Part shown: positions 13,361 through 52,528 of the stretch, one piece after another | Layout of the letters: every line of letters starts with the position of its first letter | How positions within the stretch are numbered: the first letter of the stretch is position 1 | Source: Candidatus Binatus sp. | Lineage (GTDB): Bacteria; Desulfobacterota; Binatia; Binatales; Binataceae | Direction: 5' to 3' | Assembly: GCF_049584895.1 (NCBI RefSeq) | Contig: NZ_JBAUYR010000097.1 | Coordinates: 2,921 to 66,920, forward strand | DNA length: 64,000 bases | The notes under the pieces: generated by a model | Told to the model about the DNA's origin: nothing | The model's database searches: none | The model's input: the letters and a program-made list of their open reading frames with translations, nothing else | Made by a program: the position numbers and the translations under genes

Positions 13361-14707
<1,347 letters not shown>

Positions 14708-20840: not shown

Positions 20841-20945
20841 TTGTCATTTGACTCTGCGACCCGCGTGGTCTTAAGTGACCCTCAGATGCTGCCGCACCGA
20901 AGTTGCAGCGCGCACGAAAACAAAAAATTACGCGAGGAATTGTTC

Positions 20946-21149
20946 ATGGCTCGAATGATCAGACACGAAAAGAACTCACCGTACGAAGTACCGGAAGGCA
21001 CCGAGCTGCCAATCTACATCTGCGCGTGCGGACTTTCGAAGAACAAACCCTTTTGCGACGGCTCGCACAAAAAAACGCGCGACGAAAATCCCGCCGACGT
21101 CTACGTCTATGACGACATCGGCCGCGCCCGCGTCAAAACCGAATACTAG
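20946..21149 (+). CDS. CDGSH iron-sulfur domain protein
   Basis: [17 protein letters not shown] is the CDGSH 2Fe-2S signature. ATG at 20946. Confidence 0.8.
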
Positions 21150-21181
21150 CCATTCCAGTCCACCCTCCTTCCGCGATTGCC

Positions 21182-21217
21182 CCCCTTCCCGTATGGGAAG
21201 GGGTTTAGGGGTTAGGT
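21182..21217 (+). repeat. REP-like element copy 1: CCCCTTCCC-GTAT-GGGAAGGGG hairpin plus TTTAGGGGTTAGGT tail
   Basis: Read directly from the sequence. Intergenic, between CDGSH and the GT39 gene. Confidence 0.8.
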
Positions 21218-21228
21218 TTCTGCCTCTC

Positions 21229-23070
21229 GTGCCCGAACAGATTGTGCGCGCCGACTCCGAGCCGACTCCACCTCCGAGCGACGAGACCAGCAAAGCTCCG
21301 CCGGACTGGCTCCAGTACATCGCCGAGCCGCGCCACGCATGGCCCATCCTGCTAATCGTCGGCGTGGCCCTCTACCTGGTAAATCTGGGCGGCTACCCGC
21401 TCTATACCAAGGGCGAGCCGCGCGAGGCCGTCACCGTTTTCGATATCGTTCACGGCGGCGGCATCATATTGCCGCAGCGTGCCGGCGTCGAAATTCCCTC
21501 CAAGCCTCTCCTGATGCATTGGATCGCAGCCCTTGTCTCGATCGTGGCGGGCGGCGTGAACGAATTTTCCGTGCGGCTGCCGTCCGCCGGTCTCGCTATC
21601 GCCGGCGTGATCGTTTGCTACTTCTATGTGCGCCGCCTGTTCGACGATGTGACCGCACTGATCGCCGCGCTGATACTCGGCACTACTTTTCAATACCTGC
21701 AAGCTGGGACGGGCGCCCGCGTCGATATGACGCTGACCTTCTTCATGGAAGTCGCGTTCTTCGAATTTATTTTGATGGCCGAAGGTTTGACCCGCCGGCG
21801 GATGCTTCTCTACGTCGCAATCGCGCTGGCAGTTTTGACCAAGGGTCCCATCGGTTTGATTCTTCCTGGCCTGGTCGCCCTGATATGGATCGCTCTCGAA
21901 AAACGCTGGAGCTTTCTCGGCGAGATGAATCTCGTCCGCGGCGCGATCGTCGTGCTAGTGCTCGCGGGAGGATGGTACGTCGCGGCGCTGATCGAAGGAG
22001 GGCCCGATTTTTTTCGCAAGCAGGTTCTCGCCGAAAATCTGCTTCGCTTCGCTGGCGGCAGCGATTTTCACGAAGGCCACATCCACCCCTTCTATTATAT
22101 GGAGCTCGCGCTCCTGGCCGGCTTCATGCCGTGGACGTTTCTGCTGCCGATCGTCGGCGTCCAGGTCGCGCGCACGCCGCTCACCGCCGATTCGCGCCTC
22201 AAATACATCTTCGTCTGGTTTGCCGCCGTCGTGATCTTCTACAACCTTCCGCAGAGCAAGCGCGGCGTATACCTGCTCTGCATGTATCCCGCTTTTGCGA
22301 CTCTGGTCGCGATTTATTTGAGACAGGCCGTCGTGCGGCCTGCGCCGTCTGCTACGCTGGCCCATTGGCTCGCGCGACTGTATGGCGTCGCGATGCTGCT
22401 GTCTGGGAGCGCCGCTCTGGTCGCGCTCGCGATGCTCATAGCCTCGCCACACGAGTTCGCCGACCTGCTGCAAGTGGGGAACGTTCGCGCGTCTGCCTTT
22501 GCGCCGAACCTCGCCTCGGCCGTGGACGAACATTGGATACTGGCGCTCGCGATGCCGCTGACGGTCGTCGTGCTCGGCGTGCGGCTGATAGTCACGCGGC
22601 CACTGGTCGAACGAATCGTGTTCGCAATCGCGTCCGCGATGGTCTTCGTCACCGTTGCGGTCAACGTCATCGTGGTGCCGGCTATCGCCAACACCCTCTC
22701 ACTGAAGGAGTTTACCGATCGCGCGATGAAAGTCGTCGACGACAATCCCGTCGGCTACCTGAATGCGCTCAACTACGACGTCGCCTTTTACAGCCGCCGC
22801 ACAATTCCGATCGTCTCGCAAAAAGATCCCGACATGCCCCGGTACGTGATCGCATGGCGCACGCTCTTCGATGCGCTGCCCGCGTCGAAGAGCAGCCGTT
22901 TCGAAATCGTGATGGTATCGAACCCGACTTCGCTCGACGGCAGCGACGAGATGCTCCTGCTCCGCCAGCGCGCGGGTGCAGCAACTCCGCCGCCCAAGCC
23001 TTCCGATGACTACATCCAGGCCACCACCAATCCGGTTCCCCTTCCCACGTGGGAAGGGGTTAGGGGTTAG
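21229..23070 (+). CDS. GT39/ArnT-like membrane glycosyltransferase
   Basis: LYLVNLGGYPLYTKGEPREAVTVFDIV... followed by many TM helices. The start was moved to an in-frame GTG at 21229, because the track ORF (21109) reads through the CDGSH 3' end and repeat copy 1. The last ~11 codons and the stop are supplied by repeat copy 2. Confidence 0.75.
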   Translation: MPEQIVRADSEPTPPPSDETSKAPPDWLQYIAEPRHAWPILLIVGVALYLVNLGGYPLYTKGEPREAVTVFDIVHGGGIILPQRAGVEIPSKPLLMHWIAALVSIVAGGVNEFSVRLPSAGLAIAGVIVCYFYVRRLFDDVTALIAALILGTTFQYLQAGTGARVDMTLTFFMEVAFFEFILMAEGLTRRRMLLYVAIALAVLTKGPIGLILPGLVALIWIALEKRWSFLGEMNLVRGAIVVLVLAGGWYVAALIEGGPDFFRKQVLAENLLRFAGGSDFHEGHIHPFYYMELALLAGFMPWTFLLPIVGVQVARTPLTADSRLKYIFVWFAAVVIFYNLPQSKRGVYLLCMYPAFATLVAIYLRQAVVRPAPSATLAHWLARLYGVAMLLSGSAALVALAMLIASPHEFADLLQVGNVRASAFAPNLASAVDEHWILALAMPLTVVVLGVRLIVTRPLVERIVFAIASAMVFVTVAVNVIVVPAIANTLSLKEFTDRAMKVVDDNPVGYLNALNYDVAFYSRRTIPIVSQKDPDMPRYVIAWRTLFDALPASKSSRFEIVMVSNPTSLDGSDEMLLLRQRAGAATPPPKPSDDYIQATTNPVPLPTWEGVRG

Positions 23071-23072
23071 GT
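23038..23072 (+). repeat. REP-like element copy 2: CCCCTTCCC-ACGT-GGGAAGGGG hairpin plus TTAGGGGTTAGGT tail
   Basis: Read directly from the sequence. It lies between convergent GT39 (stop 23068-23070, inside the tail) and Sir2 (stop 23075-23077). Confidence 0.8.
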
Positions 23073-23074
23073 TC

Positions 23075-23872
23075 CTAGGACAAAGCTTCTCGTCGAATTT
23101 CGGCGGCGGCCTTCACCAACCGCGGCAGCACGTCTGCCGAAGTGCCGCGCAAACTGACGTCGCATATCTGCGTGATCTCTGAATCGTAGAGATTCACTTC
23201 GATTAAAGTTCCGCCGCGCTGCTTCACTTCGAGCGCGAATCCTGCCGCCGGATAAACCGTTGCCGAGGTGCCGGCAACAATCACCAGGTCCGCCTTCGCC
23301 GAATGCTCCGCGCAAATGTTCAGCACGTCGATTGGAATCGGCTCGCCGAACGAGACCGTGTCCGACTTCAACAATCCCTCGCATCGCGGACACGCCGGCG
23401 GCAGCGTCTCGAGGCTGATCGCGTCGCCATGAAACCGCGTCCTGCAATCGAGGCATCGAATCAAAGTCCAGTTGCCGTGAATTTCAGCGAGCGCCTTCTG
23501 CCCAGCCTGCCGATGAAGGTCATCGACGTTCTGCGTAATCACAAAGCGCAGAACTCCGAACTGCTCCAGCTCGACCAACGCGAGATGACCCGGATTCGGC
23601 CGGGCCACCGACAGTGGTTTGTAGAGTTCGTCGTTGCGCTTGCTGAGCCTCTCCTCCCAGGCCTTTTTCGGATCGGCCATGAAGCGTTGGAACCCGTTCA
23701 TCGGCGGCTCGCCGTATTTGGTCCAGAGTCCGCCAGGGCCGCGAAAAGGAGGTATGCCGCTTTCGACCGACATCCCCGCGCCAGTCAGCGCGATCGGGTA
23801 TCGCGCTGCCAGAATCGTTCTTGCAGCATCGCGAATGTCGTCGTCGCTTGCACGCTGGTTCGGTTTTGCCAT
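23075..23872 (-). CDS. cobB: NAD-dependent protein deacylase, Sir2 family
   Basis: GAGMSVESGIPPFRGPGGLW, QNVDDLH, zinc ribbon CLDC...CPRC, and VIVAGTS. Confidence 0.88.
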   Translation of the reverse strand: MAKPNQRASDDDIRDAARTILAARYPIALTGAGMSVESGIPPFRGPGGLWTKYGEPPMNGFQRFMADPKKAWEERLSKRNDELYKPLSVARPNPGHLALVELEQFGVLRFVITQNVDDLHRQAGQKALAEIHGNWTLIRCLDCRTRFHGDAISLETLPPACPRCEGLLKSDTVSFGEPIPIDVLNICAEHSAKADLVIVAGTSATVYPAAGFALEVKQRGGTLIEVNLYDSEITQICDVSLRGTSADVLPRLVKAAAEIRREALS

Positions 23873-36112: not shown

Positions 36113-36263
36113 CGATGGAATTGTTATCGAAGCGACATCAGTTTGCCAGAGTGAGAAAGAACTTAATTTAATGTGAAACCCGCCGTGGCTTTCCGCTTCC
36201 TTGGGCAGGGGTGACCTCCTTCGGCTTCGCTCAGGACAGGTTCTGCACCCAGTGTTAAGAGGC

Positions 36264-50178: not shown

Positions 50179-51864
50179 ATGGCGGGCACTATCGATCAGC
50201 AGATTGCTCTCGGCGCGATAGACGACGCGCAAGCGCTGCCGCTGCTCGGTAAGCTGCACGAGTGGGTCGTCACGGTAGATCACAAGCGGCTCGGCCTCAT
50301 GTACATCGGGGGCGGCCTCTTCTTTTTTCTGATAGCCGGCCTGCAAGCTGCGACGATCCGGCTTCAGCTCGCGTTCCCCGACGGCGCCATCGTGCCGCCG
50401 CAGGTATTCAATCGCCTACTGACGATGCATGGCACCGCGATGGTCTTCCTGGTTGGGATGCCGATCCTTACCGGCTTCTTCAACTACCTGGTGCCCCTGA
50501 TGATTGGAGCGCGCGACCTCGCGTTCCCGCGGCTCAACGCCTTCGGCTTCTGGCTGTGGTTCTTCGGCGCGATTCTCCTCTACTTCAGTTATATCGGCGG
50601 CGACGGTCTCTACGGCGCGGGCAGTGCGCCCGACGTCGGATGGTTCGCGTACGCACCGCTCACCGAGCTGCCGTTCTCGCGGGGCAACAGTACTGATTAT
50701 TGGATACTGAGTATTTTTCTGACCAGCGTCGGCACGACGGCAACCGCAATCAACATAATCGCCAGCGCGTTCTGCATGCGGTGCGAAGGGATGACGCTCA
50801 GCAAGATGCCGGTGCTGGTGTGGCTGGCGGTCGTCGTCGCATTCCAGATGCTGGTCGCGTTGCCGCCGCTGTCAGCCGCGCAGGCGATGCTGCTATTGGA
50901 TCGCTTCCTCGGTGCGCACTTTTTCGACACGCAGGCGGGCGGTTCGGCTATACTGTGGCAGCACTTCTTCTGGATCTTCGGCCATCCCGAAGTTTATATC
51001 CTGGTGATTCCCGCTTTTGCTTTCGCCTCCGAGATCATCCCGGTCTTCTCGCGCAAAGTGATTTTCGGTTACAGCGTCATGGTCGCTGCGTCGGCCGCGA
51101 TTGCGTTCGTGAGCCTGAGCGTGTGGGCGCATCATATGTTCTCGGTCGGCATGACGCCCGTCGGCAACTCGTTTTTCGCCGCCTCCTCGATGCTGGTAGG
51201 TGTGCCGACCGGCATCAAGATTTTCAACTGGCTCGGCACAATCTGGGGCGGGAAACTTCGCTTCAAAGTGCCGATGTTGTTCAGCCTCGCATTTATTTTT
51301 CAGTTTCTCGTCGCGGGGCTGACCGGCATCATGTTGGCCGTCGCGCCCTTCGATTGGCAAGTTACGGATACCTACTTCGTCGTCGCTCATTTCCACTATG
51401 TACTAGTCGGAGCGATTGTATTCATGGATTTTGCCGCTATCTACTATTGGTTCCCAAAGGCTACTGGGCGAATGCTCAGTGAGGCATTGGGTAGGTGGCA
51501 TTTCTGGCTATTCTTCATAGGCTTTCATCTGACATTTGACACTATGCACTTTGCGGGACTGCGCGGGATGCCCCGGCGCATCTATACCTATCAGCCGGGA
51601 CGCGGACTCGAGACGCTCAATCTGGTTGAGTCGATTGGCGCGCTGTTCCAGGGCATCGCCGTGCTCATACTAGTAATCAATATTGTTCGCTCGCTCCGCT
51701 CCGGCGAACGGGCAGGCAACGACCCGTGGGATGCTTGGACGCTCGAATGGTCAACGAGCTCACCACCACCGGAATACAATTTCGCCGAAGCGCCTAAGGT
51801 ACTCAGTCGCCGTCCGCTGTGGGACCTTAAACATCCGGAAGACCCGGACTGGAAGTACGAATGA
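50179..51864 (+). CDS. ctaD: Cytochrome c oxidase subunit I
   Basis: Canonical haem-copper oxidase sequence (WFFGHPEVYILVIPAF, HHMF, VAHFHYVL). Confidence 0.95.
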   Translation: MAGTIDQQIALGAIDDAQALPLLGKLHEWVVTVDHKRLGLMYIGGGLFFFLIAGLQAATIRLQLAFPDGAIVPPQVFNRLLTMHGTAMVFLVGMPILTGFFNYLVPLMIGARDLAFPRLNAFGFWLWFFGAILLYFSYIGGDGLYGAGSAPDVGWFAYAPLTELPFSRGNSTDYWILSIFLTSVGTTATAINIIASAFCMRCEGMTLSKMPVLVWLAVVVAFQMLVALPPLSAAQAMLLLDRFLGAHFFDTQAGGSAILWQHFFWIFGHPEVYILVIPAFAFASEIIPVFSRKVIFGYSVMVAASAAIAFVSLSVWAHHMFSVGMTPVGNSFFAASSMLVGVPTGIKIFNWLGTIWGGKLRFKVPMLFSLAFIFQFLVAGLTGIMLAVAPFDWQVTDTYFVVAHFHYVLVGAIVFMDFAAIYYWFPKATGRMLSEALGRWHFWLFFIGFHLTFDTMHFAGLRGMPRRIYTYQPGRGLETLNLVESIGALFQGIAVLILVINIVRSLRSGERAGNDPWDAWTLEWSTSSPPPEYNFAEAPKVLSRRPLWDLKHPEDPDWKYE

Positions 51865-51889
51865 AGGCGTTCTCTCATTTGCGATTGTC

Positions 51890-51924
51890 CCCCTTCCCTC
51901 GAGGGAAGGGGTTAGGGGTTAGGT
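51890..51924 (+). repeat. REP-like element copy 3: CCCCTTCCC-TCGA-GGGAAGGGG hairpin plus TTAGGGGTTAGGT tail
   Basis: Read directly from the sequence. It fills the ctaD-ctaE gap, and the tail ends 1 nt before the ctaE ATG. Confidence 0.8.
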
Positions 51925-51925
51925 A

Positions 51926-52528
51926 ATGGCCGCCGCACCTACCGTGATGCCCACTCCCGCAGTGACTTGGGCGGACACGCTCCCACGACGCGGCCGCGTC
52001 GGCATTATGGCGCTGATTCTCACCGAGTCCGTGTTCTTCTCGATTTTCGTAGTCGCCTACATCTTTTATCTTGGCAAAAGCCTGACCGGCCCGTACCCTA
52101 AAGACGTCCTGTCGCCTCCAATCCTGAATACCATCTGCCTGCTTTCGAGCAGCATCACGATCGTCCTCGCGATCCGAGCCCTGCGCGCCGGTTCGATCGG
52201 CACCTTTGCCCTATGGTGGTTCGTCACTTTCGCCCTCGGCGCCGAATTCCTGACCGGCACGGCCCTCGAATGGCATCGACTCATCTACCATGAGGGTCTA
52301 TCGATTCGCACCAACCTTTTTGGAACTACCTATTACTCATTAGTGGGTCTGCACGCGATCCACGTCACTGTTGGATTACTACTTATTCTGCTCGTGCTGA
52401 TACTGACTATGTGCGGATACATGAACGAACGACACATCGAGCGGACTGATGTGCTCTCATGGTATTGGCACTTCGTGGACGCCGTTTGGGTTGTAGTATT
52501 CCTGACCGTGTACGTGATCGGTCGATGA
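51926..52528 (+). CDS. ctaE: Cytochrome c oxidase subunit III
   Basis: Polytopic protein with a TYYSLVGLHAIHV motif; position right after subunit I. Confidence 0.85.
   Translation: MAAAPTVMPTPAVTWADTLPRRGRVGIMALILTESVFFSIFVVAYIFYLGKSLTGPYPKDVLSPPILNTICLLSSSITIVLAIRALRAGSIGTFALWWFVTFALGAEFLTGTALEWHRLIYHEGLSIRTNLFGTTYYSLVGLHAIHVTVGLLLILLVLILTMCGYMNERHIERTDVLSWYWHFVDAVWVVVFLTVYVIGR

Follow-up and report, generated by a model that had tools for sequence, protein, structure and literature searches.

The BoxC, PIT and TMECO elements are reportedly G/C-rich class II intrastrand triplex repeats, present in E. coli and in about 260 other genomes (Hoyne et al. 2000; Holder et al. 2015). The dispersed hairpin element described here occurs three times in a stretch of 64,000 nucleotides of Candidatus Binatus DNA (the window, positions 2921-66920 of contig C97) and is a new sequence member of this known class. 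The genome holding the window, designated G000, has 5.17 Mb in 151 contigs and 59.8% GC. In class II repeats a pyrimidine arm is followed by a purine arm and then by a reverse-Hoogsteen strand, which runs antiparallel to the purine arm and makes G·G:C and A/T·A:T triplets (Holder et al. 2015, PMC4666352). Mobility functions were never found next to TMECO in that survey (PMC4666352). Unlike TMECO as surveyed, the Binatus motif is also the terminal inverted repeat of small units that carry a DUF559 nuclease gene. The solo copies, which stand alone between genes, are probably single termini of such units, with a triplex-type layout, that the nuclease spreads. The present analysis adds the matching of subtypes between solos and units, the co-occurrence counts across the genus and the evidence for replacement at orthologous sites. 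Literature searches found no link between DUF559, ycjD or Vsr-like proteins and triplex.

The element resembles TMECO in having a 9-nt C-rich arm, a 3-6 nt loop, a 9-nt G-rich arm, a 3-nt second loop and a 9-nt G-rich third strand, and its second loop TTA is present in some E. coli copies too. As with TMECO, its copies are confined to intergenic DNA, favour neither strand overall and can form inverted pairs; its copy number differs widely among close relatives, and its loci vary between them. For TMECO, E. coli strains have from 1 to 29 copies each (PMC4666352). On the other hand, the Binatus sequences CCCCTTCCC/GGGAAGGGG/GGGGTTAGG, with their T·A:T triplets, depart from CCCTCNCCC/GGGNGAGGG and do not match the strict TMECO pattern, which is CCCTCNCCC-N3-6-GGGNGAGGG-N3-GGGNGAGGG (PMC4666352). 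The Binatus element also has an extra conserved outer flank of 7-9 nt, and its hosts belong to the phylum Binatota. Other repeat families of G000 and of G039, a genome from another Binatia family, come near the TMECO pattern (CCTCTCCC/GGTGAGGG, CCCTCTCCC/GGGTGAGGG).

Three further systems are close in one respect or another. The REP/REPIN repeats with their RAYT genes share the short palindromic intergenic form, the number of about 100 copies, and the few nuclease genes bracketed by their own inverted repeat at orthologous loci, with one repeat type per gene type. They differ in the enzyme, which is of the HUH Y1 kind and not a Vsr/PD-(D/E)XK DUF559 protein, and the Binatus repeat has a third-strand tail and no conserved GTAG. 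Small insertion sequences (IS) bounded by terminal inverted repeats (TIR) and the miniature inverted-repeat transposable elements (MITE) resemble the Binatus system in the unit of about 480 bp, the TIR of about 45-50 bp, the single open reading frame (ORF) and the many short gene-less derivatives. The Binatus derivatives, however, are single termini with no visible target-site duplication, which sets them apart from MITE, and the enzyme belongs to the nucleases, not to the DDE, serine or tyrosine recombinases. Finally, the EDxHD/Vsr-like homing endonucleases (I-Bth0305I) and the protein 3HRL share sequence homology and the conserved D...E-x-D...H motif with the Binatus protein. Unlike the genes of EDxHD homing endonucleases, the Binatus gene lies outside introns and inteins and stands free between triplex-type inverted repeats.

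Anatomy of the element and of the nuclease units

The conserved unit of the repeat is about 45 nt long and comprises 7-9 nt placed 5' of the hairpin (GCGATTGYC or TCCGGTT), the hairpin and a 14-nt tail. The order of the module is outer flank, 9-nt pyrimidine arm, 4-5 nt loop, 9-nt purine arm, TTA, 9-nt G/T-rich strand and TT. Among the 99 copies of G000 that bear an oriented tail, the arms are 95-100% conserved, tail positions 1-14 (TTAGGGGTTAGGTT) are 78-98% conserved with background beyond, and the 5' side is conserved from position -7. The comparison of filled and empty sites at the ctaD/ctaE junction, the former being 45 nt longer, gives an independent boundary. The initial annotation had described a three-copy element of about 35 nt; its extent proved too short, and the count of three applies inside the window only.

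The loops belong to distinct types (GCTC in 36 copies, TCGA in 18, ACTAT in 8, and others), of which GCTC, TCGA and ACTAT-like loops dominate. The GCTC loop is accompanied by the flank TCCGGTT or TCTGGTT, and the TCGA loop by GCGATTGTY. The loop differences had been taken for free variation under selection on structure alone, a view that is not supported: the loops are discrete types that co-vary with the outer flank and with the subtype of the DUF559 unit. Three tail-less copies (C15:43403, C53:3248 and C135:10273) have the outer flank on both sides and form a 16-bp perfect palindrome (TCCGGTT-hairpin-AACCGGA).

The arrangement CCCCTTCCC-N4-5-GGGAAGGGG-TTA-GGGGTTAGG has the 9/loop/9/3/9 geometry of the class II purine-motif triplex repeats, and GGGGTTAGG reversed pairs with GGGAAGGGG at 8 of 9 positions. 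The class II definition used (ITxF, PMC4666352) admits stems of 6-15 nt, at most one mismatched triplet and loops of 1-6 nt, and the element, with arms of 9, a loop of 4-5 and a linker of 3 nt, falls within it by layout. With a linker of 3 nt, 84 of the 99 copies allow at least eight of the nine triplets (G·G:C or T·A:T), whereas the opposite side of the hairpin reaches 6/9 at most. G000 contains 117 class II motifs with stems of at least 8, and a shuffled genome contains none. The tails co-vary with the stems across families (CCCCTTCCC/GGGGTTAGG; CCTCTCCC/GGTGAGGG, about 32 copies; CCCCCTTTCC/GGGGGATAGG; CCCCCTCTCC/GGGGGAGAGG). A strict form of this covariation fails between the family of the window (family A) and family B, and the covariation is clear against the CTCTC-type families only. 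Judged by its layout, the element is a class II purine-motif intrastrand triplex repeat of the BoxC, PIT and TMECO kind, in a sequence version specific to Binatus, and its tail is better read as a putative third strand than as a telomere-like sequence.

The nuclease genes provide the link between the element and a candidate mobile unit. G000 has seven matches to PF04480 (DUF559), and hairpins near these genes were located by an explicit stem scan. Four of the genes (C66, C77, C4 and C139) are bracketed by triplex-type modules. Family copies at 23414 (+) and 23858 (-), with inward-pointing tails, enclose the C66 gene (23552-23833, interrupted by one TGA) in a unit of 467 bp. The C77 gene is intact (128 codons) and is placed between A-like copies, with an outer pair of family B copies in addition, and the C4 and C139 genes are each bracketed by their own triplex hairpins. 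A fragment at the end of contig C14 has a C4-type hairpin on its assembled side, and the C8 gene is bracketed by inverted repeats of about 60 bp of a different kind.

The C66 unit, used as a DNA query (13 candidates scored per genome, absences rechecked by protein search), detects 1-6 units in each of 18 other Binatus genomes, at 69-95% identity. A full unit of about 480 bp is present in 28 of the 30 best loci of these genomes, terminated on each side by an inverted repeat of some 45-50 nt in which both outer flank and loop are included. The two tails face the interior, and the gene has its stop codon inside the right-hand repeat. The left and right loops of a unit are reverse-complementary (GCTC/GAGC, GCGC/GCGC, ACTAT/ATAGT, TCGA/TCGA, ACAT/ATGT), and each loop type has its own outer flank (TATCTGGTT...AACCAGATA, GCGATTGTT...AACAATCGC, ACCGGTT...AACCGGT). 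The solo subtypes are the same loop-plus-flank combinations as those of the units, and the boundary of the solos is the boundary of the unit inverted repeat. The solos are therefore probably single termini of DUF559 units.

The ORF of the unit encodes about 127 aa and begins some 25 nt beyond the left tail; its end is often ...EPNP-TAA, inside the right tail. One intact A-type example, at G052:C5:40139-40519, has a product of 127 aa. The unit protein matches the DUF559 structure PDB 3HRL (E 1e-18) and, at E 3e-4, the homing endonuclease I-Bth0305I (3R3P). The DFxC...ExDGxxH motif is found in 22 of 30 ORFs picked by script, the other eight including some wrong-strand picks rather than broken genes. 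On these similarities, the unit protein is a small Vsr/EDxHD-like endonuclease of the PD-(D/E)XK DUF559 kind. Units stand at orthologous loci across species (L205/L207/L218, L213/L214, and the C66 locus in G000 and G051), which suggests vertical inheritance, as is known for RAYTs. Both DUF559 genes of G039 are bracketed by TMECO-like inverted motifs with the tails inward; G039 is one of five genomes sampled from other families of the class, and the remaining four have no DUF559 gene. A search for a master gene among the ORFs between copy pairs on C14, C97 and C147 gave phage or housekeeping genes only.

Distribution, turnover and competing explanations

The pattern search of the whole genome, proposed in the initial annotation, gives 123 hairpin matches in G000 under relaxed settings, 99 of them with an oriented tail (divided 54 to 45 between the strands), where none is expected. 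Many more copies thus exist than the three first noticed. Of 24 Candidatus Binatus genomes sampled, 17 contain the exact 34-nt pattern, and the 16 genomes taken from other genera of the class have no match. A search of 47 Candidatus Binatus genomes with the 21-nt core of arm plus tail, one mismatch being tolerated, gives 1-204 copies in 44 of them. In a scan of one genome per prokaryotic species, the matches listed are almost all from metagenome-assembled genomes (MAG) of soil and peat whose titles read Candidatus Binatus or 'uncultured delta proteobacterium'. The one exception among these matches is a contig of 1956 bp binned as Roseiarcus sp. (L077, JBAQGU010000447.1), which has an exact copy and was probably assigned to the wrong bin, being of Binatus origin. 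Exact copies are also present on two IMG/VR viral contigs (L236, L237). The idea of a REP/MITE-like dispersed intergenic family with a lineage-restricted sequence holds, the lineage being the genus Candidatus Binatus only.

The copies of G000 are intergenic or overlap gene ends only, according to gene calls made with our own rough codon-usage ORF picker. The 5' gene ends beside the elements are unreliable in such calls, since the tail contains stop codons and TTG. Elements are stacked with other repeat families in shared spacers, similar to the mosaics of BIME. One prophage-like contig (C14:1-12434, with portal-, terminase- and lysozyme-like ORFs by eye) has eight family copies and the DUF559 fragment at its end. 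A stretch of about 2.3 kb without a called gene (C147:112749-115100) holds three copies in the same orientation about 0.9 kb apart and is flanked by ORFs that resemble mnmE and yidC by eye.

The number of repeats follows the presence of the nuclease. An A-type DUF559 gene was defined by at least 67% identity, other DUF559 paralogues having at most 56%, and its intactness was judged from the protein search, in which most matches are without an internal stop. An A-type gene or pseudogene is present in 19 genomes, whose copy numbers range from 22 to 204 with a median of 86. In the remaining 28 genomes the median is 6, and 19 of these have no more than 11 copies. The difference gives p = 6e-7 (Mann-Whitney) and p = 1.5e-6 (Fisher), values that overstate the evidence, given that the genomes are related.

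The turnover of the element was followed at orthologous sites with joined-flank ('empty site') queries for 17 copies of G000 against three close relatives, and ten sites aligned. Most aligned sites are filled in the relatives, where arms and tail are near-identical and the surrounding intergenic DNA has diverged. The loop and the outer flank switch jointly between subtypes at one site. At C29:108811, for instance, three species have three subtypes: GAGC in G000, ATAGT in G052, and TCGAG with ACAATCGC in G054. At C14:6241, on the prophage-like contig, the element is inverted in G054 (C21:421978-422525, L170) relative to G000 and G052, and the site is empty in G051. At C29:85598 the element is missing in G054 and G051. 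Replacement of the whole module at fixed sites fits either repeated cutting with other copies as repair templates or a site that strongly attracts insertions; it does not fit neutral decay of fossil repeats.

A mechanism can be proposed on this basis. The DUF559 nuclease would recognise the module, as a duplex or folded and possibly on single-stranded DNA, and would cut there. Repair or transposition would then copy single termini into new intergenic sites, and resident copies would be overwritten through ectopic conversion. The tail-less palindromes would be the remains left after deletion of the interior of a unit between its two hairpins. This cut-and-copy proposal would explain why arms and tails are near-identical across species and subtypes swap at one site.

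Several observations weigh against the spread of unit termini by the nuclease. The mobilising role of DUF559 is deduced from architecture and co-occurrence. Nine genomes without a detected A-type gene hold 19-117 copies; most of them are MAG of 63-92% completeness, and G054 (92% complete) has 117 copies and no detected A-type gene. The A-type gene of G000 itself (C66) is a pseudogene, and only the divergent C77 gene (46% identity, A-like ends) is intact; the family may be largely static in G000 now, perhaps because the A-type gene is dead and only this divergent gene is intact. For the solo subtypes GCTC and TCGA, which are abundant, the 151-contig assembly of G000 contains no cognate unit. 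No target-site duplication was found at the ctaD/ctaE insertion or outside the unit ends. There is also no consistent target motif, the only hint being T-rich sequence outside the left unit end and A-rich sequence outside the right. The family A tail fits its own arm at 8/9 positions but the family B arm at 9/9, so that Watson-Crick pairing is better maintained than the triplex rule, and RNA does not form purine-motif triplexes (PMC4666352). The only annotated DUF559 gene of E. coli K-12, ycjD, has a single BoxC/TMECO copy in its vicinity, about 160 nt downstream with the tail away from the gene, and its stop is overlapped by a degenerate pyrimidine/purine hairpin (L227; features at NC_000913.3 1351194-1351244 and 1351390-1351420). 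The arrangement is an adjacency unlike the Binatus units, and only a lead.

The main rival explanation is that the dispersed repeats are older and serve as landing sites. Selfish DUF559 genes would then home into inverted pairs, the repeats would have been spread by another agent, perhaps extinct, and the nuclease would account for neither the number of the solos nor where they came from. The occurrence of units at orthologous loci in several species favours this view, as it suggests vertical inheritance over frequent hopping, and so do the nine copy-rich genomes without an A-type gene, the relationship of the protein to a homing endonuclease (3R3P) and the existence of inverted pairs without a gene, such as C17 2653/2795. 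However, the ends of the units are exact inverted copies in loop and flank and define the solo subtypes, which is expected if the solos derive from the ends. Moreover, all 19 gene-bearing genomes have at least 22 copies, whereas 19 of the 28 gene-less genomes have at most 11. The landing-site explanation is rather improbable on balance.

A role at the RNA level kept by selection, by which the element, placed at the end of a gene, would terminate transcription or stabilise the mRNA at its 3' side, is improbable to a greater degree. The GC-rich 9-bp stem is stable, with a minimum free energy of -18 to -24 kcal/mol for the RNA of the approximately 45-nt element and -9.8 kcal/mol for the DNA hairpin, and stems and tail are conserved at an old orthologous site. 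The orientation relative to the flanking genes, which the initial annotation had asked to see tabulated, is also suggestive: 36 copies between same-direction genes are sense and 16 antisense, and 23 copies lie between convergent genes. Nevertheless, both orientations occur often, and divergent genes flank 17 of the copies. The stem is followed by the tail UUAGGGGUUAGGUU and not by a U-tract, so the element does not qualify as an intrinsic terminator, and the conserved tail and outer flank would have no role in one. The third copy of the window is placed within the ctaD-ctaE operon junction, where termination would be harmful. In E. coli, PIT/BoxC elements reportedly showed no promoter or terminator activity (PMC4666352), which counts against this role as well. 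Termination is a side effect at most.

The initial annotation suggested a RAYT as the partner of the repeat. A REP/REPIN family mobilised by a RAYT (a Y1/HUH transposase) would account for a short intergenic palindromic repeat that occurs in inverted pairs, and two Y1_Tnp genes are indeed present in G000. This suggestion is very unlikely to be correct, as the two genes are flanked by other repeats, AATCACAGGCTAAAGCCTGTGCCAC (about 45 copies) on both sides of the C76 gene and GTAGGACGGAATTTATTCCGTC-type hairpins beside the C13 gene, and no copy of the window family is near either. Across the 47 genomes, Y1_Tnp (PF01797) is present in 13 and shows no significant association (p = 0.06-0.19) with the abundance of the family. 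The genomes that lack it include several of 93-195 copies; G048 (195 copies in 3 contigs), G059 (121), G021 (122), G054 (117), G011 and G009 are without it, and it is present in G017, which has 0 copies. The C76 gene (11218-11772; L001 1414-1968, minus) is flanked by AATCACAGGCT(A/G)AAGCCTGTGCCAC, the REP family of about 45 copies, and looks like one half of a classical REP/RAYT pair unrelated to the window family. Its coding sequence contains the repeat-encoded peptide HRLKPVP and may thus hold a repeat insertion. The second RAYT-like gene (C13:1626-2210; L002 1288-1872, plus) has the GTAGGACGGAATTTATTCCGTC-type hairpins (GTAG plus palindrome) at its ends.

A switch between the hairpin and a G-quadruplex made of purine arm and tail (GGG-AA-GGGG-TTA-GGGG-TTA-GG), which the telomere-like reading of the tail had implied, is hardly credible: four G-tracts do lie on one strand, but with 3, 4, 4 and only 2 Gs they allow a two-tetrad fold at most against a 9-bp GC hairpin and do not make up a quadruplex motif, and the tails of other families follow their own purine arm (GGTGAGGG, GGGGGAGAGG), as expected from the mirror/triplex rule and not from a quadruplex.

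The copies of the window and their neighbours

The pattern CCCCTTCCC-N4-GGGAAGGGG matches the window at 21182-21203, 23038-23059 and 51890-51911 only, and 100 dinucleotide-preserving shuffles gave 0 matches. As first reported, the three copies have the tail on the + strand and the loops GTAT, ACGT and TCGA, in this order. The tail after the hairpin is TTAGGGGTTAGG in copies 2 and 3 and TTTAGGGGTTAGG, with one T more, in copy 1. The neighbouring genes were identified by Pfam, which agrees with the junctions CDGSH/GT39, GT39/Sir2 and ctaD/ctaE (COX1/COX3) named in the initial annotation. The features are collected in the table.

Table. Copies of the element in the window and the genes beside them (window coordinates)
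Feature	Position	Strand	Remarks
Copy 1, solo element	21173..21218	+	between CDGSH stop (21149) and likely GT39 start (GTG 21230)
Copy 1 outer flank	21173-21181	+	GCGATTGCC
Copy 1 pyrimidine arm	21182-21190	+	CCCCTTCCC, then loop GTAT
Copy 1 purine arm	21195-21203	+	GGGAAGGGG
Copy 1 tail	21204-21218	+	TTTAGGGGTTAGGTT
Copy 2, solo element	23029..23073	+	outer flank AATCCGGTT; hairpin 23038-23059, loop ACGT
Copy 2 tail	23060-23073	+	TTAGGGGTTAGGTT
Copy 3, solo element, TCGA/GCGATTGTY subtype	51881..51924	+	flank GCGATTGTC, hairpin 51890-51911, tail TTAGGGGTTAGGT; between ctaD stop (51864) and ctaE ATG (51926)
CDGSH iron-sulfur domain gene, upstream of copy 1	20841..21149	+	Pfam zf-CDGSH, E 2.9e-12
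GT39 / PMT_2 glycosyltransferase gene	21230..23070	+	Pfam PMT_2, E 4.5e-16 in frame 21109..23070
Sir2 gene	23075-23872	minus	Pfam
ctaD (cytochrome oxidase subunit I), upstream of copy 3	50179..51864	+	Pfam COX1, E 3e-154
ctaE (cytochrome oxidase subunit III)	51926..52528	+	Pfam COX3, E 2.4e-17

The window copies look like passengers with local side effects, namely a new C-terminus and stop for GT39 and a 45-nt spacer between ctaD and ctaE. The site of copy 1 is filled in all five relatives compared, in regions 78-90% identical, with the loops GTAT, TCGA, TGA and TCGAT and a decaying copy in G058. The 5' extension of the GT39 ORF (21109-21229), upstream of the likely GTG, is a read-through of copy 1. 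The final 15 codons of GT39 (TTNPVPLPTWEGVRG) come from copy 2, and so does the stop TAG at 23068-23070, which is inside the tail of this copy; the frame ends in ...NPVPLPTWEGVRG-TAG. Copy 2 adjoins the 3' end of the convergent Sir2 gene. The ORF 21109..23070 had been considered inflated by the repeats. This is right for its 5' end and wrong for its 3' end, where copy 2 truly terminates the gene. A rival long frame (21339..23009) has no Pfam match.

At the site of copy 2, G021 has an element with another loop and flank, G054 has a decayed one, and G052, G051 and G058 have none. In the alignments of the last three there are no element-derived GT39 codons and no tail stop at this point. The GT39-end copy is thus absent from three of five orthologues, contrary to the possibility, raised at the outset, that the copies are parts of a conserved protein C-terminus. 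The ctaD/ctaE spacer measures 62 nt in G000 and its relative G054, the only genomes with copy 3, 16-17 nt in eight other species, and is replaced by an overlapping TAAATG in four. The net insertion of 45 nt corresponds to GCGATTGTC, the hairpin and TTAGGGGTTAGGT. The ATG of ctaE is placed one base beyond the tail of copy 3, whose AGGGG sits 7 nt before it.

The search against Rfam gave no family that matches the element, and a tRNA gene at 14636-14707 (minus) is the only Rfam match in the window. A different dispersed composite repeat of about 85 nt (AATGTGAAACCCGCCGTGG...CTTCCTTGGGCAGGGGTGACC...CTGCACCCAGTG) is found at 36168-36255. Its k-mers occur 45-90x in the genome, often beside copies of families A and B.

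Significance for gene annotation and for triplex-type repeats

The repeats have a practical consequence for genome annotation. They make false ORF extensions and also supply real stops, so the family needs to be masked in the gene calls of Binatus MAG.

Triplex-type repeats have been known since the 1990s and number thousands across bacteria, and their origin, spread and function are unexplained. The units of Binatus, an uncultured soil genus, make the origin of these repeats a bench question, that of a DUF559 nuclease binding and cutting a triplex-forming module. Tentatively, DUF559 nucleases and triplex-forming terminal repeats could represent an undescribed nuclease-repeat system parallel to RAYT/REPIN, in which the nuclease would cut the folded module of pyrimidine arm, purine arm and reverse-Hoogsteen strand (Y-R-RH) and drive copying, conversion and local rearrangement. 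Such a system, if general, would provide a mobilising enzyme for the BoxC/PIT/TMECO repeats of E. coli, cyanobacteria and hundreds of genomes, and a cause for the genomic instability reported around them.

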